A stretch of 64,000 nt of DNA from an uncultured Methylomirabilota bacterium (GCA_963705305.1 OY970067.1:4640001-4704000); one strand, 5' to 3'. Positions 45,417 through 61,866 are shown, counted from the first letter of the stretch. Notes: generated by a model from the letters alone, not told the origin. Numbers and translations are program-made.

Positions 45417-47631
<2,215 letters not shown>

Positions 47632-47919
47632 GCCTACCCCCCTGTCGGTTCCGGAGCGGTTCGCGAATCGCCCAACGTCCTCGGGACCCGTGAATCCCCC
47701 CATGTCCGGCGGGAACCCGCCCAAGGCTGGCGGGAGACCAGTACTGGCCTGTCCGGGATGGGGATGCGATCGGCGGCCGTTCTCGGCGGCCGCGAGTCGT
47801 CCGTCGCAGACCCGCCGGAGTCGGCCTGCGCGATTCTGGTAACACAGGGGTGGAGGGGTGTCAAGGAAGAATCCCCGCCTCCCCCCTCCGCGGACGCACA
47901 GCGGCCCTCGCGCCGCAAA

Positions 47920-49563
47920 TCACGATCCGCCCAGGATCCGGTCGGCCACCTGCATCGCCCCTTCCGCGATGGCGGACAGCAGCCGGCCTGGCCCCCACCA
48001 CTCCCCCACGGTCAACAGGCCGCGTGGTGCACAGGCCGGCGGTGCCCCCGCTCGCCTCCCCAGCCATTCCGGCACAGTCCCGGCATATCGCACCGCCGCC
48101 GTGGGGCGCCCCCACAGCTCGGCCAGGCGCCCGGGGTCGAGCGTGCGCGGGAAGCCGGCCGATTGTTCGATCCCGGGGATGATCTGGTCGACGGCCGCCA
48201 GCAGCGCTCCGCCCCCCCGAGCCGCCGGTCCCCCGGAAGACGCCGGCACATAGCGCCCCGCGCTGAGACAGATGGAGTCGGCCGGGAACCCCTCCTCTGG
48301 GGCCTGAGCGACATGGACGAAGACCAGGTTTTCCTCCCGCGCCGGCCGGTCCGGATCGGGGACCACCACGCAATGGGCGCGGAGCTCGGAGGGGCAAAGG
48401 GACGCCGGGAAGACGGCGGCCACTCCTTCTGCCACGTGGGTGACCTGCCGGGCGCTGTCACCCCCTCGAGGACGTCGGAGCCATCGGGCCGTTGGCGGGA
48501 GCAGCCACTCCGCCAGCACGGCGGGGGGCACATCCGAGACGACCCAGCGGGCCTGAACGGTCTCCTGCTGAGCGGTCACCACCCCGAGGACCCGTCCCCG
48601 CCTCACCAGGCATCCGGCGATTTCGGCTCCCAGCCGAAGCTGGCCCCCGTCCCGCTCGAACTGCCGCAGCAGCGAGTCCATCAGCGTCTCCACGCCTCCG
48701 CGAATGGTGGCCCCGCGGCGACGCACATCCTCCAGCGCGACGGCGGCTTCCAGGGTCGAACACTCCTCGGTCGTTCGAAGCAGGAGATACCAGAGGACCG
48801 CTTCCAGCACCTGCCGGCTTGCCGGACCCAGTGCGATCTCGTCGAGGGTCGCGCGGAAGGGGGTCGCCATGGCCCGCCCCACCATTCTCCACGCCGAGGC
48901 CTGCGCCCCCACCATTTTTCCCAGCCGCGACCGCAGCCACCACCGCAGGCGCGTCGGCCACTGCTCGGGGGGCAGCGATGGAGCAACGCCGAGGATCCGC
49001 TCGCGGCTCGCCAGCTGCTCGTCCAGCCTGGCCAGCAAGGCTCGCCAACCGGCCTCATCTTCCGGGAACTCCCGCCGGATCTCCCGCCACCATCGGTCCG
49101 AATCCTGCCAAAAGCTGATCCGGTGACGCCGCAGGGCGACCTGGAGGGCGGGCTCCGTTTCCACCGTGGGGAGCGCGAGCCCCAGCCGCTGGCAGAGGAG
49201 GGTCGCCGGGCCGCTCGGCCCCAGGCCCGTCAGAAAGCTGGTCCCGGGCTCAAACCGGCATCCATCCAGCGACAGGACCCGGCTGGCGCCGCCCGCCTCG
49301 GGAGATCGGTCGAAGACGACCACGGACCGGCCCGCGCGGGCCAGGAGACAGGCAGCCATGATGCCGCCCATTCCGGCACCCACGACCGCAACGTCCCACT
49401 CCGAAGGCGTGAGCGATCCGGGGCCCGGGGAGACGGGCAGCGCGCCGGCGTCCGGCGCGGGAGCTGCGGACACTCCACCGGCCGGCATCCCGTGGGCGCC
49501 GGGTGGCGGGGGGGAAGAAGGGGAGCTCTTCCGCTTATGGCGAGATCGCTTCGCGGCAGTCAC
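47920..49563 (-). CDS. FAD-dependent oxidoreductase, phytoene desaturase-like
   Basis: DVAVVGAGMGG Rossmann motif, GGVETLMDSL, C-terminal RGLLTVGEWWGPG. Start is uncertain. Confidence 0.75.
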   Translation of the reverse strand: MTAAKRSRHKRKSSPSSPPPPGAHGMPAGGVSAAPAPDAGALPVSPGPGSLTPSEWDVAVVGAGMGGIMAACLLARAGRSVVVFDRSPEAGGASRVLSLDGCRFEPGTSFLTGLGPSGPATLLCQRLGLALPTVETEPALQVALRRHRISFWQDSDRWWREIRREFPEDEAGWRALLARLDEQLASRERILGVAPSLPPEQWPTRLRWWLRSRLGKMVGAQASAWRMVGRAMATPFRATLDEIALGPASRQVLEAVLWYLLLRTTEECSTLEAAVALEDVRRRGATIRGGVETLMDSLLRQFERDGGQLRLGAEIAGCLVRRGRVLGVVTAQQETVQARWVVSDVPPAVLAEWLLPPTARWLRRPRGGDSARQVTHVAEGVAAVFPASLCPSELRAHCVVVPDPDRPAREENLVFVHVAQAPEEGFPADSICLSAGRYVPASSGGPAARGGGALLAAVDQIIPGIEQSAGFPRTLDPGRLAELWGRPTAAVRYAGTVPEWLGRRAGAPPACAPRGLLTVGEWWGPGRLLSAIAEGAMQVADRILGGS

Positions 49564-49580
49564 AATAGTCGTCTGGGGGC

Positions 49581-50899
49581 TCAGCCCCGGCCGCGGACCG
49601 ATAGCCGGATCGGGGTTCCGCGGAATCCATAGGCCTCACGGAGACAGTTTTCCAAATACCGCATGTAGGAGAAGTGCAGCCTCGCCGATGCGGTAGTAAA
49701 GCACAGGAAGGTGGGCGGCCGGACCCCCACCTGCGTGGCGTAGCGCACACGAACCGGGCGCCCCCGCTCCGCCGGAGGCGGCCGCCGCGAGACCGCCGCC
49801 TGGATGGTGGCGTTCAGCTCGGGCGTCGGTATCCTCCGCTCCCGTTCCGCCGCCGCCGCATCGATCATGCGAAACAGAGAACGTCACGCGAAGGCCCGTC
49901 AATGCCGAAATGAATGCCACCGGCGCGTAGTCAAGATATTTGAATCGCTCTTGCATATCAAGGCGGAACTTCTCCATGGCGTCCGGCTCGCGGGTCCGAC
50001 GGTCCCATTTGTTCACGGCCAGGATGCAGGCGCACCCGGCCTCGTGCGTTTCGCCGGCAATCTTCGTATCCTGCGCCGTCACGCCCTCGATCCCATCCAG
50101 GAGGATCACCGACACGTCCGCCCGCCGCACGGCCGCCAGGGCGCGCGAGACGCTGTAGCGCTCCACCGAGCGTCCCAGAACGTCCCTTGGCGCGGATGCC
50201 GGCCGTGTCCACCAGCACATACTCCCGGCCGCCGAGGCTGAACCGGGTGTCCACCGCGTCGCGCGTCGTTCCCGGCTCAGGACTCACCACGACCCGGTCG
50301 GTCCCCAGGATGCGATTCACCAGGGAGGACTTCCCGACGTTGGGCCGGCCGACCACGGCGACCGTCACGGGCCGGCCCTCGTCCGCCGCGGCCGCGGCCG
50401 CCGGGAAGAGGGCCGCCACGACATCCAGGAGCTCCCCGATGCCCCGGCCCTGCTCTGCGGAGATCGGGTAGGTGGCGTCGAATCCGAGGCGGGCGAACTC
50501 CGCCGCCAGCGGCTCCTGGCCCAAAGCATCCACCTTGTTCACCACCAGGAAGATGGGCCGCGGGGTCCCCCGTCGCAGCAGACGGGCGACCTCGATGTCC
50601 GTGGGGGTCAGGCCGTCTTTCGCGTCCACCAGCAGGATGATGGCGTCCGCCTCGGCCACCGCCTGCTCGGCCTGGGCGCGGATCTGGACCGCGATCCCCG
50701 AGCCGGCGGGCTCGAAGCCGCCCGTGTCCACCACGGTGAATTGCTGCCCCCGCCAGTCGAATGCACCGTAGAGGCGATCCCTGGTTACGCCAGGCTGGTC
50801 GTCCACGATCGCGCGCCGCCCCCGGAGCAGGCGATTGAAGAGGGTGGATTTCCCGACATTGGGCCGGCCCACGATGGCAAGAACCGGTGGCTGCGGCAC
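49581..50899 (-). CDS. der: Ribosome biogenesis GTPase Der (EngA), split by two +1 frameshifts (probable sequencing errors)
   Basis: Two G domains (GRPNVGKS twice, DTGG/DTAG, NKVD/NKWD) and the KH tail (PPTF...YLENCLREAYGFRGTPIR) lie in three frames. Removing one base at 50179-80 and one at 49880-81 gives a 438-aa ORF. Confidence 0.93.
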
Positions 50900-52289: not shown

Positions 52290-52889
52290 GTGGGAGACGA
52301 GCGAAGCCTGATCGAGGCGTCGAAGCGGGGGGACACCGACGCCCTGGAAGAACTGGCTCGGACGCACCAGGGGCGCGTGTACGCCTTCGCCATGCGCATG
52401 TGCCGCAATGTTGAGGACGCGAAAGACATTTTGCAGGAGACGTTCTTGGGAATGGTTCGGTCTGTCCGCGACTTCCGGGAAGAGAGCAAATTCACCACCT
52501 GGCTGTACCGGATCGCCGCGAATGCCTGCATGAAGAAGCGGCGACGGGGCGTGTTCGAGCCCGAGCCGGATCAGGAGCTGTCCCTGGACGACCTGATGCC
52601 GTGCCCCGGCCAGGATGGGCGAAAGCCGGAGATCCCGGACTGGTCCGAGGATGCCGAGCAGGCCCTCTTGCGGGGAGAGCTGTCCGACCGGGTGGAGGCG
52701 GCCATCGATCGTTTGCCCCACGAGTACAAGATCGTGCTGGTCCTGCGGGACGTGGAGGGCTTCTCGGCGCAGGAGACGGCGGAAATGCTGAACCTTTCGG
52801 TCCCGGCGGTGAAATCCCGCTTGCACCGCGCCCGCGTCTTCGTCCGCCGGGAGCTGGAGGGGTATTTCCGCGATCGGAAAGAGACCTAA
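52290..52889 (+). CDS. ECF sigma-70 factor
   Basis: DAKDILQETF, SKFTTWLYRIAANAC, region 4 LRDVEGFS...AVKSRLHRAR. Confidence 0.93.
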   Translation: MGDERSLIEASKRGDTDALEELARTHQGRVYAFAMRMCRNVEDAKDILQETFLGMVRSVRDFREESKFTTWLYRIAANACMKKRRRGVFEPEPDQELSLDDLMPCPGQDGRKPEIPDWSEDAEQALLRGELSDRVEAAIDRLPHEYKIVLVLRDVEGFSAQETAEMLNLSVPAVKSRLHRARVFVRRELEGYFRDRKET

Positions 52890-53772: not shown

Positions 53773-55152
53773 ATGAAACGGTGGCGACTTGCACGGCAGA
53801 GCTGGCTGATCCTTCCCCTGCTGCTTGCGGCCACATGGGGAGGCGGGGGTGCGGCCTGGGGCGCGACCCCGCCCATCGAGGAGCTTACCCTCGTCGAGGC
53901 CGTCAAGACTGCCCTGGAGAAAAATCCGGCTCTTCGCGCCGCCACGCACCAAGCGGAGGCGGCGGCGGCCGGGGTGGACCAGGCGCGGGCCGGCTTTTTC
54001 CCACGGGTGGATTTTTCCGAGGGCTTCACACAGAGCGACAATCCCGTCTACGCCTTCGGCAGCCTGCTGAACCAGGGGCGCTTCACGCAGGCCGATTTCG
54101 CAGTGGACACGCTCAACCATCCCGACGCCATCAGCAACTGGCGGACGAACATCGGCGGGAGCCTTCCGCTGTTCATGGGAGGTCGGACCCTTCTGGGATA
54201 CCAGCAGGCGCAACTGGGATCCCAGGCCGCGGAGCAGGGGCGGGCCCGGGTGGAACAGACGGTCATCTTCGGAGTGGTCCGAGCCTATTACGCCGTGCTG
54301 CTCAGCCAGGACGCTCAGGCGACGGTCGAATCCTCCTTGCGGACGGCCGAAGCGACCTTGGCGGCCGCCGAGGCGCGGTATGAAACGGGCCTGGTCGTGG
54401 CATCGGACGCCCTGGCGGCCCGCGTGCGTGTAGCCCGGCTGCGGGAGGAGGCCATCGCCGCCGAGAACCAGGTGCGCCTCGCATACGCCGCCTTGAACGA
54501 GGCCATGGGGGTCAGGCTGGAGGCGCCCCACCGGGTCACCGGGCACCTCGAGCTTCCTCCCGTCCAATATTCTACCCTGGACAGGCTGGACGCCGTGGCG
54601 TTGAACCGCCGGCCGGACTACCTGCAGGCCACTTTCGAGGAGCAGCGGACGGAAAAGGAGGTGTGGCGGGCCAAAGGCGCGTTGCTGCCGACCCTGAATC
54701 TGGTGGGGAACTACGAGATCAACAACCACTACTTGGCCTCCGACGGGCAGGACAGCTGGAGTGTCGGCGTGCTCCTGAACCTGAATCTGTTTAACGGCGG
54801 CGCCGATCACGCCCGGCTAGTTGAAGCCGAGGCGAACTACCGGCGGGCGGTCGCCTTGCGCGAACAGCTCGCCAACGCCATCGGTCTGGAGGTCCGCGAA
54901 GCGTTCCTAACCCTCCAGACGGCCCGTCAACGCATCGGGGTGGCGCAGGAGGCCGCGCGGCAGGCGGAGGAGAGTCTGCGCATCGTCAAGGACCGGTACG
55001 AGGCCGGCCTCACCACCATCGTGGAGCTGCTGGACAGCGAGACCGCCCTGACCGCCGCCCGCACCAACGTGACGCGGACCCTCTACGACGCCACCGTCAA
55101 TCAAGCGAGGCTGCAACTCAGCCTCGGAATGCTCGACCCTGCGAGGTTTTGA
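53773..55152 (+). CDS. TolC family outer membrane efflux protein
   Basis: Signal peptide, LTLVEAVKTALEKNP, two OEP repeats (RYETGLV, RYEAGLTTIVELLD). Confidence 0.93.
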   Translation: MKRWRLARQSWLILPLLLAATWGGGGAAWGATPPIEELTLVEAVKTALEKNPALRAATHQAEAAAAGVDQARAGFFPRVDFSEGFTQSDNPVYAFGSLLNQGRFTQADFAVDTLNHPDAISNWRTNIGGSLPLFMGGRTLLGYQQAQLGSQAAEQGRARVEQTVIFGVVRAYYAVLLSQDAQATVESSLRTAEATLAAAEARYETGLVVASDALAARVRVARLREEAIAAENQVRLAYAALNEAMGVRLEAPHRVTGHLELPPVQYSTLDRLDAVALNRRPDYLQATFEEQRTEKEVWRAKGALLPTLNLVGNYEINNHYLASDGQDSWSVGVLLNLNLFNGGADHARLVEAEANYRRAVALREQLANAIGLEVREAFLTLQTARQRIGVAQEAARQAEESLRIVKDRYEAGLTTIVELLDSETALTAARTNVTRTLYDATVNQARLQLSLGMLDPARF

Positions 55153-55155
55153 GCC

Positions 55156-56361
55156 ATGCTGAGTCTGCGACGTACGCTCCTGTACGCCCTTCTGCTCCTG
55201 CCGCTGGCGGCGTGCGGGAAGGAACCGGCACGGCCGGAAAAGACCGCGGCTCCCCCCGTGGTTCGGGATGTCACGCTGGGCACGGCAACTCTCGGCGAGG
55301 TTGCGGAAACGGCCGAGGTCGTGGGCACGGTGAAGTCGCGGACGGTCACCACGGTCTCCAGCAAGATCCTGGGCCGAATCCTGCGTCTCACCGTGCGTGA
55401 AGGCAGCCTGGTCCAGTCGGGGCAGACGCTGGCGGAGCTTGACGACCAGGATATCCTGGCTCAGGTCCACCGCGCCGAGGCGGGGCTGGCCGAGGCGGAA
55501 AGCGGCGTGGCGGAGGTCGATCAGGCCATTGCGGCGGCGGTCGCAGCCCAGGCGGCGGCGGACGCGGAGCGTGATCTCGCCACGACGACCCTTTCGCGCT
55601 ACCAACGCCTGCTGGACCGCAAATCCGTGGCGCCCCAGGAGTACGATCAGGTGGCTGCGCGGCACAAGGCCGCCGTGGCCGAGGCGGAGCGCGCCGCGGC
55701 CGAACGGCAGGCGGTGGAGGCCAAGCGACGACAGGTCCTGGCCCGGATCGAGTCGGCCCGCGCCGAGGTCGCCGGCGCACGCGTCCTGCTGAGCTACGCC
55801 ACGATTGCCTCCCCCCTGGCCGGCGTGGTGACGGTCAAGCACGCGGACGTGGGCGGCATGGCGACCCCCGGCGCCCCTCTTTTGACCATCGAAGACAACC
55901 GGCACTATTGGCTGGAGATTGCGGTCCCGGACGCGCAAGCGGCCACCCTCCGTCCCCGGCAGAGCCTGCAGGCGACCGTGGAGTCGGTGGGCCTGTCCCT
56001 GGCGGCGCCGGTGAGCGAGATCCTCCCCGCCGCCGACCCGTCCACGCGGACCACGCTGGTCCGCCTCGACCTCCCTCCCCAGCCTCGGCTCCGCTCGGGC
56101 CTCTTCGGCCGCGCCTGGATCCCAGTGGGCCGAAGGCAGGCCGTCCAGGTGCCCGCCAGCGCACTCGTCGAGCGGGGCCAGCTGCAAGGGGTCTACGTGG
56201 TGGGATCGGACGGGACCGCGCGCTTCCGCCTGATCTGGACCGGCCAGACGCGTCCGGAGGGCGTCGAGGTGCTCTCCGGTCTCGTCGGCGGCGAGCGGAT
56301 TGTCGTCTCCGGCACGGCCCGGGTGACCGACGGGGCCCGGATCGAGCCTGCCAAACCCTAG
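55156..56361 (+). CDS. RND efflux periplasmic adaptor (MFP)
   Basis: Lipobox LAAC, VSSKILGRI, IASPLAGVV, ADPSTRT, VEVLSGL. Confidence 0.93.
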   Translation: MLSLRRTLLYALLLLPLAACGKEPARPEKTAAPPVVRDVTLGTATLGEVAETAEVVGTVKSRTVTTVSSKILGRILRLTVREGSLVQSGQTLAELDDQDILAQVHRAEAGLAEAESGVAEVDQAIAAAVAAQAAADAERDLATTTLSRYQRLLDRKSVAPQEYDQVAARHKAAVAEAERAAAERQAVEAKRRQVLARIESARAEVAGARVLLSYATIASPLAGVVTVKHADVGGMATPGAPLLTIEDNRHYWLEIAVPDAQAATLRPRQSLQATVESVGLSLAAPVSEILPAADPSTRTTLVRLDLPPQPRLRSGLFGRAWIPVGRRQAVQVPASALVERGQLQGVYVVGSDGTARFRLIWTGQTRPEGVEVLSGLVGGERIVVSGTARVTDGARIEPAKP

Positions 56362-56450: not shown

Positions 56451-59400
56451 ATGTCGCACCCAGAAACCACCGCCCCCCCGCCGGCCCGCCATGAGATCCC
56501 GTTGGGTCTGGCGGGGCGCTTGGCCCGCGCCTTCATCAACTCGCCCCTGACACCGCTGATCGTCGTGGCGTCGATCCTGCTGGGCCTCTTCGCCATCATC
56601 GCCACTCCCCGGGAAGAGGATCCGCAGATCGTCGTCCCCATGATGGATGTCTTCGTCCAGTTTCCGGGCGCCAGCGCCAAGGAGGTCGAAGAGCGGATCA
56701 GCATCCCCATGGAAAAGCTCCTCATGAACATCCCGGGGGTGAAATACGTCTACTCGACCAGCAGCCCCGGGCTGAGCTTCGTCGTCGTGCGCTTCGAGGT
56801 CGGGGAGGATCAGGAGCGGAGCATCGTCAAGGTCTACAATAAGCTCTACTCCAATTTCGACCTGATCCCTCCGGGGGCCTCCAAGCCGCTCATCAAGCCG
56901 CGTTCGATCGACGATGTGCCGATCCTCGCGCTCACCTTGTGGAGCGACCAGGTCGACGGGTACACCCTGCGACGCGTCGCGGCCCAGCTCGAAGGCCAGA
57001 TCAAGGACATCCCGGACGTCTCCGAGACCCACCTGATCGGGGGCGAGCCGCGCCAGCTCCGCGTCCTCCTGGATCCCACCAGCTTGGCGGCCCGGCACCT
57101 CTCTCCTGAGGCCGTGGCCGGAGCCCTCGTGGCCGCCAACCAGGCGGTCCAGGTCGGCAGCTACGACATGCAGAACCGGCAGGTCCTGGTGGACGCGTCC
57201 CGCTTCCTCGATCGCCCGGAGGAGATCGGCCGCCTGGTCGTCGGAGCCGACGGAGGACGTCCGGTCTATCTCCAGGATGTCGCCCGCATCCTGGACGGCC
57301 CGGCGGAAGCACAGCACTATGTCTTCTTCGGTGTCGGCCAGGCCGCGGCCGCCAAGGGGATCGGCCGCGACATGCCCGCCGGACAGGACTACCCGGCCGT
57401 CACCCTTTCCATCGCCAAGCGCCGGGGTACCAACGCCGTCGTCATCGCCGAGAATGTCCTGCACAAGGTGGAGGCGCTGAAGGGCGTCCTCATCCCCGAC
57501 AACGTCCACGTGACCGTCACCCGGGACTACGGCGAGACCGCCAACGAGAAGGCCAACGAGCTGTTCCAGCACCTGCTGCTGGCCACGGTATCGGTCACCC
57601 TGCTCATCGCCGTCTTCCTGGGGTGGCGGTCGGCCGTGGTGGTGCTCCTGGCGGTGCCGGTCACGCTGGCGCTCACGCTGTTCCTGTACTACATCTACGG
57701 CTATACCTTGAACCGCGTGACCCTCTTTGCCCTCGTCTTCTCCATCGCCATCCTGGTGGACGACGCCATCGTGGTGGTGGAGAACATCACCCGCCACTTC
57801 CATCTGCCCGAGAACCGCGGTCGGTCCCTGCTGGCGGTCGCCGTAGAGGCCGTGGCCGAGGTCGGGAACCCCACCGTGCTGGCCACCTGGGCGGTGATCG
57901 CGGCGATCCTGCCCATGGCCTTCGTGGGCGGCCTCATGGGCCCCTACATGCGCCCCATCCCGGTGGGGGCCTCGGTGGCGATGCTCTTCTCCCTCTTCAT
58001 CGCCTTCATCATCTCCCCCTGGGCGGCCTACCGCGTGCTGCGGGGGGAAAAGACTGCTCCGCACGGGGAGCACTACGAGGACTGGACCACGCGGTTGTAC
58101 CGGCGGATCATGACTCCCCTCATCCGCTCCACCTGGAAGCGCTGGGTGTTCCTGACCGGTGTGCTGGTGCTGCTCCTGGCGGCCGTCTCCATGCTCTACT
58201 TCAAGCTCGTGTACGTGAAGATGCTTCCCTTCGACAACAAGAGCGAGTTCGAGGTCATCGTGAACATGCCGGAGGGCACCTCGCTCGAGCAGACGGCGCA
58301 CGTGACCCGCGAGATCGGACAGTACCTGGCCACGGTCCCGGAGGTCACGGACTACGAGATGTACGTGGGGACGGCGGCTCCCTACAACTTCAACGGACTC
58401 GTCCGGCACTACTTCCTTCGCCAGAACCCCTACCAGGCCGGCCTGCAGGTCAACCTGCTGCCGAAGGGCCGGCGGTCCGCCCAGAGCCACGACATCGCCA
58501 AGCGGGTCCGGCCGAAGCTGGATGCCATCGCGGCCCCCTACGGCGCGCGCATCCAGGTCGCCGAGGTTCCCCCCGGTCCCCCCGTCCTCCAGACGCTGGT
58601 GGCGGAGGTGTACGGGCCGGAGTACGCGGACCAGGTGGCCATCGCCCAAAAGATCAAGGCGCTCTTCGCCAAAACGCCCGGCGTGGTGGACGTCGACTGG
58701 TACGTCGCGGATCCGCATCCCCAGGTCCGCTTCCTGGTCGACCGCGAGAAAGCCGCGCTGAGCGGGGTCACGCCCGAGGCGGTGGTCCGGACGCTCCAGC
58801 TGGCGGTAGGAGGTATGGAGGTCGGACTGCTCCACCTCCCTCGCGAGAAGGAGGACGTCAGCCTGCTGGTTCGGCTCCCGCGCGCCAACCGGTCGGGCGT
58901 CACGCCGCTCACCGACCTGAAGGTCACGGGCGCCAACGGCCGCCTGGTCTCCTTGGGCGAGATTCTCCGCCCGGAACAGGACATGCAGGGGTATGATATA
59001 TACCGGAAGAACCTGATGCCGGTCGTGTATGTCACGGGGGATGTGGCGGGAGGCGAGGAAAGCCCGGTGTACGCCATTCTCAAGATGTACCGCCCCATCG
59101 CAGGGATGCAGGTCCCGGGCGGCGGCCATCTCCGGGAGAACCTGGCCGCCCTGCCGTCCACCACCCAGCAGTTCGCCATGAAGTGGGATGGGGAATGGCA
59201 GATCACCGCCGAGGTGTTCCGCGATCTGGGTCTGGCGTTCGCGGCAGCCCTGGTGCTCATCTACATCCTGGTGGTCGGCTGGTTCCGCAACTTCGTGACA
59301 CCCATCGCCATCATGGCCCCCATCCCCCTGACGCTGGTGGGCATCCTGCCGGCCCACGCCCTGCTGGGGGCCTTCTTCACCGCCACCTCGATGATCGGCT

Positions 59401-59732
59401 TCATCGCCGGCGCCGGCATTATCGTGAGGAACTCGATCATCCTGGTGGACTTCATCGAGCTGCGTCTGGCCCAGGGTATGCCGCTGGAAGAGGCCGTGGT
59501 GGATGCCGGCGCCGTGCGGTTCCGACCCATGCTGCTCACGGCGGCGGCCGTGGTGGTGGGGGTTTCCCCCATCCTGTTCGACCCCATCTTTCAGGGAATG
59601 GCCATCTCCCTCATGGCCGGCGAGGTGGCGTCCACACTGCTGAGTCGCATGGCCGTCCCGGTCCTCTACTACATGGAGCGGCGGCACCAAGCCGCGCCGA
59701 GCGCGGCGGGGCTCAAGGCCAACGGACAATGA
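56451..59732 (+). CDS. RND (AcrB family) efflux permease
   Basis: 1093 aa; [11 protein letters not shown]4 [34 protein letters not shown]. Confidence 0.95.
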
Positions 59733-59842
59733 AGACCCGGCAATGGCGCAGTGAAGATTGACCATCGAGTTTCGCTGGGATCGTCGTCTTGATTTCTTGG
59801 TTCGACCTTGTCGATTTTGCATTGCACGAAGAGGGGGACCAC

Positions 59843-59995
59843 ATGGATACTCTGGGAACACTCGCGCTGATCGTGGGAATCTGGCTGGGTCTCCAGTACC
59901 TGATGCGGAAGGCCGGCCTCCCCACCTGAGGGGTTAAGGGGTGCTCGTCGAGCACCGAGACGAAAGAGGCGCCCCGGGACGAGACCAAGCCATGA
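59843..59995 (+). CDS. Putative small membrane selenoprotein (50 aa, in-frame TGA at 59927-59929, UxxxxC)
   Basis: RBS GAGGGGG, then ATG: MDTLGTLALIVGIWLGLQYLMRKAGLPT-TGA-GVKGCSSSTETKEAPRDETKP-TGA. The final stop overlaps the OsmC-like start (ATGA), and a SECIS-like hairpin follows the internal TGA. Confidence 0.68.
59930..59956 (+). promoter_or_regulatory. Candidate bacterial SECIS element
   Basis: 10 nt after the UGA: stem GGUGCUC (59940-46) / GAGCACC (59950-56) with apical loop GUC. There are 17 nt between the UGA and the loop G. Confidence 0.6.
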
Positions 59996-60462
59996 GCCCG
60001 TCGCCCGAGACGGATCAGCGGACCGTCCTGTCGCTGGAAGAGGGGTATCGGTTTCGGGTGCGGTTCGATCGGGAAGGGATTCCGGACCTGCTCACCGACG
60101 AATCGCCCCCGATTGGGGAAGACACGGGCCCCAGCCCTTCGCGCCTGCTGGCCGCCGCCATCGGCAACTGCCTGGCTGCCAGTCTCCTGTTCTGCCTGCG
60201 GAAGGCGCGCCTCGGCGTGGAGGGGCTGGAGGTCGAGGTTTTCACAACCTTCACCCGGAACCAGGCGGGTCGCTTGCGGATCGGAACGATCCAGGTCCGG
60301 TTGCACCCGAGCTGGACCGAGGAGACCGCCGCCAAGGCCCAGCGCTGCCTGGGGCTCTTTGAGGACTTCTGCCTGGTAACCGAGTCGGTCCGCCACGGGG
60401 TCCCTGTGGAAATCGCCGTGAGCGGAATCGCGATGCCGGAAGCGGATTCGGGAGGGACCTGA
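59992..60462 (+). CDS. OsmC/Ohr-like family protein
   Basis: DESPPIGEDTGPSPSRLLAAAIGNCLAASL...FEDFCLVTESV (two conserved Cys). Confidence 0.88.
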   Translation: MSPSPETDQRTVLSLEEGYRFRVRFDREGIPDLLTDESPPIGEDTGPSPSRLLAAAIGNCLAASLLFCLRKARLGVEGLEVEVFTTFTRNQAGRLRIGTIQVRLHPSWTEETAAKAQRCLGLFEDFCLVTESVRHGVPVEIAVSGIAMPEADSGGT

Positions 60463-60463
60463 G

Positions 60464-60661
60464 ATGACGCTCGAGCGCTGGATCCGTTTGATTGCAGGAA
60501 CGTTCATTCTGGTGAGCCTGGCTCTCAGCTGGCTCGTCAGCCCGTACTGGCTGCTCTTCACGGCCTTCGTGGGTCTCAACCTCTTCCAGTCGGCTCTCAC
60601 AGGCTGGTGCCTGATGGAGGATATCCTTCGCAAGGCGGGGGTCCGGGAGGGATGCGGGTGA
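60464..60661 (+). CDS. DUF2892 / YgaP-like small membrane protein
   Basis: ERWIRLIAG, FVGLNLFQSALTGWCLMEDIL. Confidence 0.88.
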   Translation: MTLERWIRLIAGTFILVSLALSWLVSPYWLLFTAFVGLNLFQSALTGWCLMEDILRKAGVREGCG

Positions 60662-61011
60662 TGGACGGTCCGCAGCCGGCCGACCCGTCGCTCCTGAGCC
60701 TGACCGCCGCCTGGCAGGCGCTCCGGCCCCTCCTGGCCCAAGAGCAGTGCCGGACCTGCGAGTGCCTGCAGGGGGCTGTCACGGAGCTCTGGCTGACGCT
60801 GGAGGATCTCCCGGTATCTGTCGACCGACCGGGGTTGCTCCGGTCCGTCGAGGGCGCCCTGCTGCGAGACGCCCCCCACTCCTGTCTCGGCTGCAACCCC
60901 TGCCAGCCGGGGAATATCCTGGCGGCTTTCTACCGCGCCCGGCAGGCCGCCACACACATGGGCGGCTGTGCTTCCAACTCATCCTGTTCGTCAGAGAAGT
61001 GTACCCTCTAG
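60661..61011 (+). CDS. Cys-rich hypothetical protein
   Basis: TGATG coupling to the upstream gene; CRTCEC and HSCLGCNPC motifs and a Cys-rich tail. Confidence 0.72.
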   Translation: MDGPQPADPSLLSLTAAWQALRPLLAQEQCRTCECLQGAVTELWLTLEDLPVSVDRPGLLRSVEGALLRDAPHSCLGCNPCQPGNILAAFYRARQAATHMGGCASNSSCSSEKCTL

Positions 61012-61020
61012 GAGAGGCCA

Positions 61021-61866
61021 ATGCCGACTACACTTACCATCATCACCGAGAACACGGTCCTGGGGAAGGGAGATGCCCTGTACGGCCAGCACGGCTTCTC
61101 GCTCTTCTTGGAGCGACCGGAGACGCGGATCCTCTTCGACACCGGCCCGGCGGGAATCGCCACCCTCCACAACGCCCCCCGACTGGGCATCGACCTCCGG
61201 AGTACGGATGCGATTGTCCTGAGCCACGGCCACCAGGACCATACCGGTGGTCTGCTGGGCGTCCTCCAGACCATCGGTAAACCGATCCGGGTGTACGCCC
61301 ACCCAGGCATCTTCGCCGACCGCTACGGAAAGCGTGCCAACGGCCGGGTCGTGCACGCCGGCATGCCCTACAAGCGCGAGGTGCTGGAGGGGTTCGGGGC
61401 ACAGTTCGATCTCTCCGCCGATTTCCGGGAGATCGCCCCCGGCATCTACCTCAGCGGCGAGGTTCCGCGTAGCTCCCCGTTCGAGACCGGTGACGCGGAG
61501 CTGTACGTCAAGCGGGAAGGCCAGCTGGTCCGCGATCCCATCGCCGACGACCAGTCCTTGGCGCTCGAGACGACGGAAGGTCTGGCTCTGATCCTGGGTT
61601 GCTGTCATGCCGGCCTCATCAACACCCTCCACCTCTTCCAAGCCAAGCTGCCGGGTCGGCGGATTCATACCGTGATCGGAGGCACCCATCTCGGTTTTGC
61701 GCCGCCCGAGCAGCTGCGCCAAACGATCGACGCTCTGAAGGCGGCGGGCGTTGCCCGGTTGAGTCTCTCGCACTGCACGGGGCTTCCTGCCGGGGCGGCG
61801 TTGGCGCGGGAACTGGGCGACGCGGTGGCTTTTTGCAACGTGGGCTACACGCTGACCCTCGCCTAG
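61021..61866 (+). CDS. MBL-fold metallo-hydrolase (COG1237-like)
   Basis: QHGFSL, LFDTG, SHGHQDHTGG, GCCHAG, IGGTHL, HCTG. Confidence 0.88.
   Translation: MPTTLTIITENTVLGKGDALYGQHGFSLFLERPETRILFDTGPAGIATLHNAPRLGIDLRSTDAIVLSHGHQDHTGGLLGVLQTIGKPIRVYAHPGIFADRYGKRANGRVVHAGMPYKREVLEGFGAQFDLSADFREIAPGIYLSGEVPRSSPFETGDAELYVKREGQLVRDPIADDQSLALETTEGLALILGCCHAGLINTLHLFQAKLPGRRIHTVIGGTHLGFAPPEQLRQTIDALKAAGVARLSLSHCTGLPAGAALARELGDAVAFCNVGYTLTLA

Follow-up and report, generated by a model that had tools for sequence, protein, structure and literature searches.

A candidate single-pass membrane selenoprotein gene next to an RND permease gene in an uncultured Methylomirabilota bacterium

AcrZ, the 49-residue partner of the AcrB pump of the resistance-nodulation-division (RND) type in Escherichia coli, is built of a transmembrane helix at its N-terminus and a short tail in the cytoplasm; we know of no selenocysteine (Sec) or Cys chemistry associated with it. 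In eukaryotes, SELENOK and SELENOS are single-pass membrane selenoproteins with Sec near the C-terminus, and their Sec insertion sequence (SECIS) elements lie in the 3' untranslated region. In this study, we analyzed a small gene within a 64,000-nucleotide (nt) stretch of DNA from an uncultured Methylomirabilota bacterium (GCA_963705305.1, OY970067.1:4640001-4704000; the whole stretch is hereafter called the window), whose genome is a single contig of 5.65 Mb. An original prediction, made from the sequence alone, proposed that an in-frame TGA of this gene is read as Sec and that the product is a 50-residue single-pass selenoprotein. Our analysis supports this proposal, as Sec machinery, a TGA conserved among relatives, continuation of the coding frame beyond it and the absence of a base miscall were all established. 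Sec read-through at the UGA most probably yields a 50-residue single-pass membrane selenoprotein.

Bacterial selenoprotein genes are recognized by an in-frame UGA conserved among orthologues, in-frame coding conservation downstream of it, a 3' stem-loop with a G in its apical loop, Sec machinery in the genome, and Cys aligned to Sec in homologues. We found the UGA in all 67 distinct versions of the gene from 73 loci, conservation downstream of it (codon-position entropy, Gly30 codons, whole-codon indels and stop/start overlap), a stem-loop with an apical G starting 10 or 13 nt after the UGA, and a complete set of Sec machinery genes, and no homologue with Cys aligned to Sec.

The small gene resembles the SelB/SECIS-dependent selenoprotein genes of its own genome, in which a G+C-rich stem of 5-7 base pairs (bp), capped by a 3-4-nt loop starting with G, stands 10-13 nt past the UGA, and it would use the same Sec machinery. 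In contrast to the Sec-peroxiredoxins, SelD, the GrdB-like protein and the CTP-synthase-C-related protein of that genome, its product belongs to none of those families, is without Cys homologues, has 50 residues and is single-pass. AcrZ is similar in size and layout, and an RND permease gene precedes the small one in 49 of 58 loci; in the remaining 9, the small gene is kept without any RND neighbour. The small protein had no match at E <= 1 in Pfam, which we take to contain a model of AcrZ, so membership in an AcrZ-like sequence family was not found. SELENOK and SELENOS share with it a small size, a single transmembrane helix placed towards the N-terminus, and a disordered tail in the cytosol that contains Sec. 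This likeness is an analogy of layout only, as the Pfam search found no sequence relation.

The original prediction could not assign the protein to a named selenoprotein family. This holds: there is no Pfam or NCBIfam match, and Table 1 of a 2026 review (PMC13188914), which lists 119 selenoprotein families and subfamilies, contains none with the layout of the small gene. Nothing like it is described in the accessible part of the Haft preprint, nor is the family described in the accessible part of the deep-Sep paper. According to the latter, Cys homologues now seem to exist for every known selenoprotein, and families that lack them may escape its method. Our full-text literature searches returned nothing joining selenocysteine with DUF2892, a membrane protein family encoded in the same operon, and no match to a small bacterial transmembrane UGA selenoprotein associated with RND pumps.

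Conservation of the TGA and of the frame beyond it

The gene starts with an ATG at 59843, behind a Shine-Dalgarno-like GAGGGGG, and a hydrophobic frame of 28 codons leads to the TGA at 59927-59929. Reading this TGA as U gives a product of 50 residues (...RKAGLPT-U-GVKGCSSST..., followed by a hydrophilic tail), with 21 codons past U. The read-through stop overlaps the ATG of an OsmC-like gene (ccATGAgc, 59992-59995), and a hairpin begins 10 nt 3' of the TGA, at 59940-59956, its 7-bp stem being perfect and its loop GTC (GUC in the RNA). Our reading of the sequence recovered each element that the original prediction had noted (Table 1). In relatives, GGAG or AGGAG is present at a similar distance from the start codon, which lies 28 or 31 codons before the TGA.

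We compared 73 loci, namely 15 whole loci of the genus and 58 metagenome loci, corresponding to 67 distinct DNA versions. The metagenome loci were found with a peptide pattern built with six sequences and ending four codons before the TGA; because the pattern ends ahead of the stop, this sample is unbiased for both the stop codon and the hairpin. All 58 metagenome loci carry TGA at the codon, and so do all 67 distinct versions, none of which has TAA or TAG, yet the terminal stop of the extended frame uses all three stop codons (TGA 37, TAG 21, TAA 9). Since the 67 distinct sequences come from different assemblies, a miscalled TGA is excluded.

A profile search found the gene in 16 of the 21 genomes of the genus, including the genome that contains the window (15 of the 20 others), with 17 matches that each contain one TGA. 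In a six-frame search reading through stops, the same-genus matches likewise had one TGA inside the alignment, which extended beyond it, confirming that conservation continues in frame past the codon. One genome, G020, carries two copies of the small gene (G020:C3:236296-236451 and G020:C1:451290-451445), both with the TGA. The six-frame search gave nothing better than E 0.1 in 40 other genomes of the order (a tally that includes G028, flagged as unpublished), and no copy was found in the 230 other genomes of the phylum (251 searched), apart from one artefact. This match, in G071, was rejected as an antisense low-complexity frame within a larger gene. Judged from these searches, and as far as they reach, the gene is restricted to one genus.

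The sequence past the TGA varies in the manner of a coding sequence. In one length class (39 distinct versions), entropy at the three codon positions was 0.21/0.16/0.85 over the five codons after the TGA vs 0.40/0.14/0.80 over the 20 codons before it. Past the hairpin, the periodicity is weaker and of the same sense (0.98/0.67/1.16 and 0.86/0.49/0.93). Gly30 is encoded by GGC in 41 of the 67 versions, GGG in 19 and GGA in 6, with a single AGC. Furthermore, the distance between the TGA and the Cys codon of the hairpin is 12 nt in 21 versions and 15 nt in 46, always a multiple of three, and the tail after the TGA measures 20 or 21 codons in 61 of the 67. In 30 of the 67 versions, the stop of the extended frame runs into the next start, 26 times as ATGA and 4 times as GTGA; the overlapped gene is OsmC-like in most cases, encodes DUF2892 in two and is a Cys-rich gene in one. 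Openness of the frame alone proves little because the +1 frame is also mostly open: of 15 loci, 0, 1 and 5 have stops in frames 0, +1 and +2, respectively, a count that does not discriminate.

An alternative explanation is that the gene encodes a 28-residue membrane peptide ending at the TGA, the hairpin being some other RNA or DNA element that, for example, stabilizes the mRNA, couples translation or binds a regulator of the downstream genes. Gene callers do stop at this codon. Of 24 matches from a profile search that covered 1.84 billion representatives, 21 end right before the TGA, at ...PT, two read W and one is an unrelated repeat protein; named database clusters are called 'hypothetical protein' (28-31 residues) and once 'YkgB'. 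These entries agree with the original suggestion that open reading frame callers miss the proposed selenoprotein, and they also speak for a short peptide, as does a +1 frame with a stop in only 1 of 15 loci. The short peptide does not readily account for a TGA that never changes when the next stop does, for third-position variation past it, including three synonymous Gly30 codons, for a spacer that changes by whole codons only, or for a stop/start overlap formed with three different next genes. We consider this explanation, the main rival to Sec read-through, unlikely.

The stop/start overlap also bears on another possibility, in which the UGA is read through mainly for regulation, selenium supply deciding whether ribosomes pass into the downstream gene, while the extended peptide matters little. 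The ATGA or GTGA overlaps would fit such a role, as would the tail past the hairpin, which is variable and predicted to be disordered, and the residues C-S-S-S-T, which are dictated by the RNA. Conversely, 37 of the 67 versions have no overlap, and four metagenome loci in an unrelated context (L080-L083), without RND, DUF2892 or metallo-beta-lactamase (MBL) neighbours and without an operon partner, retain the in-frame tail together with TGA and hairpin. RKAG-x-x-T-U-G around Sec is the most conserved stretch of the protein, which suggests that the Sec residue has a function of its own and makes a mainly regulatory read-through very unlikely. The pattern of conservation indicates that UGA 59927 is decoded and does not terminate translation.

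A SECIS-like hairpin in a genome equipped for selenocysteine

All 67 versions have the same 12-nt core, which covers the Cys codon and three Ser codons, whereas conserved residues upstream of it are encoded by several codons each (Arg by three, Gly by four, Thr by three). Since the hairpin core is fixed while equally conserved upstream codons vary synonymously, the constraint acts on nucleotides. Among 43 distinct 30-mers, basal pair 7 takes the form G-C 31 times and C-G 5 times, the other 7 being unpaired; at pair 6, 42 have G-C and a single one U-A; and at pair 5, 41 have U-A and 2 have U-G. The two basal pairs show compensatory changes, from G-C to C-G five times and from G-C to U-A once. 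Overall, 97.7% of the stem cells are paired, the covariation score was reached by none of 500 shuffles, and slid registers pair at 25-45%.

The hairpin 14-mer occurs once in the genome. We scanned the genome for TGA trinucleotides that have, after a spacer of 9-13 nt, a perfect stem of 7 bp closed by a loop of 3-4 nt whose first base is G, and 95 of 129,559 (0.07%) carry such a hairpin. Besides the small gene, five of the 95 lie in checked selenoprotein genes, selD falling outside the scan on account of its 5-bp stem. With its 7-bp stem, its GUC loop and a spacer of 10 nt, which is 13 nt in most relatives, the small gene sits within the SECIS set of the genome. By this comparison, its hairpin and the SECIS elements of the genome belong to one class of RNA element. 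No Rfam family matched positions 59700-60100 at E <= 1. In a terminator scan, the hairpin was not called and no T-run follows it; the scan returned one weak terminator-like site, at 59802-59814, within shuffle expectation.

The genome has the machinery that the original prediction had asked to be looked for. We identified a tRNA-Sec (77 bits vs a cut-off of 47; called SeC with anticodon tca by ARAGORN), selB (313 bits), selA (577 bits) and selD (342 bits), the three proteins all above curated cut-offs and selD itself containing one in-frame TGA. In the order, selA is present in 53 of 61 genomes (a tally that includes G055, flagged as unpublished) and in 25 of the 25 of high quality. Six other genes of the genome combine an in-frame TGA with a hairpin, at C1:1797213 (+), C1:1005485 (-), C1:138108 (+), C1:3560605 (+), C1:5539271 (+) and C1:5459733 (+), the last three being loci L121, L122 and L123. 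They are selD, two AhpC/TSA peroxiredoxin genes and genes for a GrdB-family, a CTP-synthase-C-related and a PrdB-like protein, and all except the PrdB-like one are over cut-offs or have the TGA at a known Sec site. A Sec-type FdhA with TGA, sought as a SECIS control, was not found in this genome.

Several observations weigh against Sec read-through. The top four stem pairs and the loop are invariant and hence uninformative on pairing. The stem singled out by the original prediction is present, but RNAfold of 59921-59990 did not give it as the minimum-energy structure (z = -1.29; 19 of 200 shuffles fold as well). This result is unremarkable, and support for the hairpin therefore rests on sequence comparison, not on thermodynamics. 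Conservation at the end of the tail (..EKKP/S) may be due in part to the next gene's ribosome-binding site. What suggests a role of the selenol in thiol, peroxide or electrophile stress is the gene neighbourhood together with the topology. Furthermore, just upstream of secY (L124; C1:4832119, minus strand), an ordinary TGA stop is followed after 10 nt by a hairpin of 7 bp whose loop is GGUC. That TGA is probably not recoded, the hairpin only resembling a SECIS; because the scan gives this false positive, the hairpin pattern alone is no proof. Such a hairpin after an ordinary stop also speaks for the 28-residue peptide. Against that explanation stand the missing T-run and terminator call, and the fact that the hairpin of the small gene has the spacing, stem length and loop found in the six selenoprotein genes of the genome.

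The search for homologues likewise weighs against Sec read-through. The original prediction expected relatives with Cys at position 29, such relatives usually marking a selenoprotein family, and none was found by a word-based search, by the profile search of 1.84 billion representatives, among the 251 genomes of the phylum or by a Cys-requiring pattern scan, an absence that again agrees with a peptide ending at the TGA. The sole match of the Cys-requiring pattern, in a Mesorhizobium metagenome-assembled genome, was rejected as spurious, being another frame of a larger gene. The two library proteins that read W where Sec is proposed are P0003 and P0007. In P0003, W is followed directly by CSSST with no spacer, and P0007 has a degenerate hairpin region, so that the W may come from a caller reading TGA as Trp or from decayed copies. 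These two entries are also what could favour decoding of the UGA otherwise than by Sec-tRNA, for example by near-cognate read-through inserting Trp, Cys or Arg, although the W is perhaps an artefact of the caller's genetic code. For at least six recognized selenoprotein families, UGA is decoded as Sec in this genome with the same hairpin type, and under non-Sec decoding a sense codon would be expected at times among the 67 versions, in which none was seen; we regard this explanation as extremely unlikely.

Topology, relatives and proposed function of the protein

AlphaFold2 predicted a helix over residues 2-23 with a predicted local distance difference test (pLDDT) score of 86-91, the remainder being unstructured, and mean Kyte-Doolittle hydropathy over residues 1-21 is 1.5-2.0. 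This model, a single helix with a disordered tail, fits the single-pass topology that had been proposed. The invariant residues are W14, R22, A24, G25, T28, U29, G30 and C34-T38, and conservation of C34-T38 is inseparable from the RNA constraint. Following the positive-inside rule, the acidic N-terminus and the R22-K23 pair after the helix suggest an N-out, C-in orientation.

The original prediction had also noted a UxxxxC motif. The spacing between U and C is four residues in 21 versions and five residues in 46. The motif is not independent evidence, because the Cys and the three Ser codons themselves make up the hairpin's 5' arm and loop, and it is their nucleotides that are fixed. Likewise, Cys-Ser-Ser-Ser-Thr need not matter for protein chemistry, because it is dictated by the RNA hairpin.

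The protein nearest to hand for comparison is that of the YgaP-like_TM/DUF2892 family (PF11127), which is, like the product of the small gene, a small membrane protein encoded in the same operon. The two are alike at the helix end and juxtamembrane segment, W-x-L-x3-(I/L)-(L/M)-R-K-(A/L)-G-(V/L), with 5/13 identities in BLASTP (E 0.065). An hhalign comparison with an alignment of the neighbouring DUF2892 proteins covered 16 columns (E 0.0026, probability 11.6%), and the Pfam search gave no match at E <= 1, to this model or to any other. Unlike DUF2892, the small protein has one helix and not two; it has Leu at the column of the DUF2892 Cys, which lies in the second helix of that family, and its Sec is placed 14 residues further, outside the membrane. 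The tail of the neighbouring DUF2892 protein (..WCLMEDILRKAGV..; gene 60464-60661) resembles the end of the helix of the small protein (..IWLGLQYLMRKAGL..; 59882-59926). An origin of the small gene by duplication of the second DUF2892 helix was considered and set aside, the likeness being suggestive and the statistics too weak for such a claim.

We propose the following mechanism. Ribosomes would start at the ATG at 59843, translate the transmembrane helix (residues 2-23) and not stop at UGA 59927. The hairpin 10 nt downstream would act as a bacterial SECIS and recruit SelB with Sec-tRNA(Sec), placing Sec at position 29, and translation would run for 21 more codons until the stop, placed across the next gene's start codon. 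With the N-terminus outside and R22-K23 inside, ...RKAG(L/V)PT-U-G... and its selenol would lie at the cytoplasmic face of the membrane. This reactive selenol may be redox-active, or may bind electrophiles or soft metals, and it could pair with Cys34. Possible partners of the protein are the RND pump, in an AcrZ-like arrangement, the DUF2892 protein and the MBL hydrolase.

Gene neighbourhood and implications

The small gene lies in an apparent operon (Table 1). It is directly preceded by the gene for an RND permease, the last of the components of a tripartite efflux system, and the MBL-fold hydrolase gene is its most faithful neighbour. The nearest solved structures of this hydrolase, 2p4z and 3h3e, are uncharacterized structural-genomics proteins. 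The Cys-rich 116-residue neighbour has no relative in the PDB; it contains CxxCxC and CxxCxxC motifs and a Cys-rich C-terminus, and it shows a sub-threshold likeness to N-terminal MtrA (28 bits vs a cut-off of 568). At locus L030, a zf-HC2 anti-sigma gene lies directly ahead of the small gene. In the four metagenome loci L080-L083, the small gene adjoins an apparent thiamine-pyrophosphate enzyme gene. Elsewhere in the window, positions 46207-49632 (+) contain an open frame of 1141 residues with no Pfam family at E <= 0.001.

Table 1. Coordinates within the window of the small gene and its neighbours, and SECIS-like hairpins of the other selenoprotein genes of the genome
Feature	Coordinates	Strand	Evidence and remarks
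Shine-Dalgarno-like GAGGGGG	59831..59837	+	ends 5 nt ahead of the start codon
Full read-through gene, 50 codons + stop 59993-59995	59843..59995	+	codon 29 TGA, predicted to be read as Sec
Predicted single transmembrane helix, codons 2-23, R22-K23 anchor at end	59846..59911	+	AlphaFold2, Kyte-Doolittle
In-frame TGA, proposed selenocysteine codon U29	59927..59929	+	TGA in 67/67 distinct versions
Spacer from UGA to hairpin, 10 nt; codons G30, V31, K32 and first base of G33	59930..59939	+	codon-position entropy
SECIS-like hairpin, 7-bp stem, GUC triloop; encodes part of G33 and C34-S35-S36-S37-T38	59940..59956	+	invariant core, covariation
Tail, hydrophilic, variable, predicted disordered; codons 39-50	59957..59992	+	AlphaFold2 pLDDT 47-60
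ECF (extracytoplasmic function) sigma factor	52290-52889	+	Sigma70_r2 and r4_2 domains
zf-HC2 anti-sigma factor, 96 residues	53282-53572	+	42.2 bits; H-x3-C-x2-C motif
Outer-membrane factor, tripartite RND efflux	53773-55152	+	PF02321, 212.6 bits
Adaptor, tripartite RND efflux	55156-56361	+	TIGR01730, 182 bits
RND permease, 1093 residues, directly upstream	56451-59732	+	PF00873, 545 bits; 49/58 loci with >= 500 nt upstream
OsmC-like gene	59992..60462	+	PF02566, 58.4 bits; downstream in 24/68 loci with room
DUF2892/YgaP-like_TM two-helix membrane protein gene	60464..60661	+	PF11127, 48 bits; 52/61 loci with >= 800 nt downstream
Cys-rich 116-residue protein gene, no Pfam family	60661..61011	+	26/46 loci with >= 1400 nt downstream
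MBL-fold metallo-hydrolase gene, most faithful neighbour	61021..61866	+	PF00753, 46.6 bits; 44/46 loci with >= 1400 nt downstream
Peroxiredoxin (FTFVU)			PF00578, 130 bits, 1 TGA; spacer 10 nt; 7-bp stem; loop GGUC
Peroxiredoxin (GUPHC)			PF00578, 91 bits, 1 TGA; spacer 10 nt; 7-bp stem; loop GGC
GrdB-family protein			TIGR01918, 400 bits; spacer 11 nt; loop GGG
PrdB-like protein			TIGR04483, 170 bits, below cut-off 300; spacer 11 nt; loop GUG
CTP-synthase-C-related (seleno)protein			NF004836, 320 bits; spacer 13 nt; loop GGU
selD			spacer 12 nt; 5-bp stem; loop GGC

In this setting, the protein would work as part of a stress operon that has the ECF sigma factor and a zinc-finger anti-sigma factor at its head and also encodes the RND pump, an OsmC-type peroxidase, DUF2892 and the MBL hydrolase. 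Taken together, our comparisons indicate a new selenoprotein family that is tiny, single-pass, without Cys relatives and confined to one genus, with a recoding mechanism that is the known one. More tentatively, the protein could be the founding member of a selenoprotein family without any Cys relatives at all, serving as the Sec-bearing subunit or as a redox relay of an RND/OsmC/DUF2892/MBL thiol-stress module.

Discovery of bacterial selenoproteins depends on Cys homologues, and the family, if true, would be a counter-example to universal Cys relatives; if it has none at all, every method based on Sec/Cys homology is blind to it. Conversely, the hairpin upstream of secY is a caution for SECIS scans based on a pattern only. 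Annotation pipelines could be corrected for the genus. The family would add a single-pass membrane micro-protein, a layout absent from Table 1 of PMC13188914, to the bacterial selenoproteins, and would, if true, be a bacterial counterpart, in layout, of SELENOK and SELENOS. Its sigma/anti-sigma and efflux context would provide a concrete setting in which to study a membrane-anchored selenol in bacteria.

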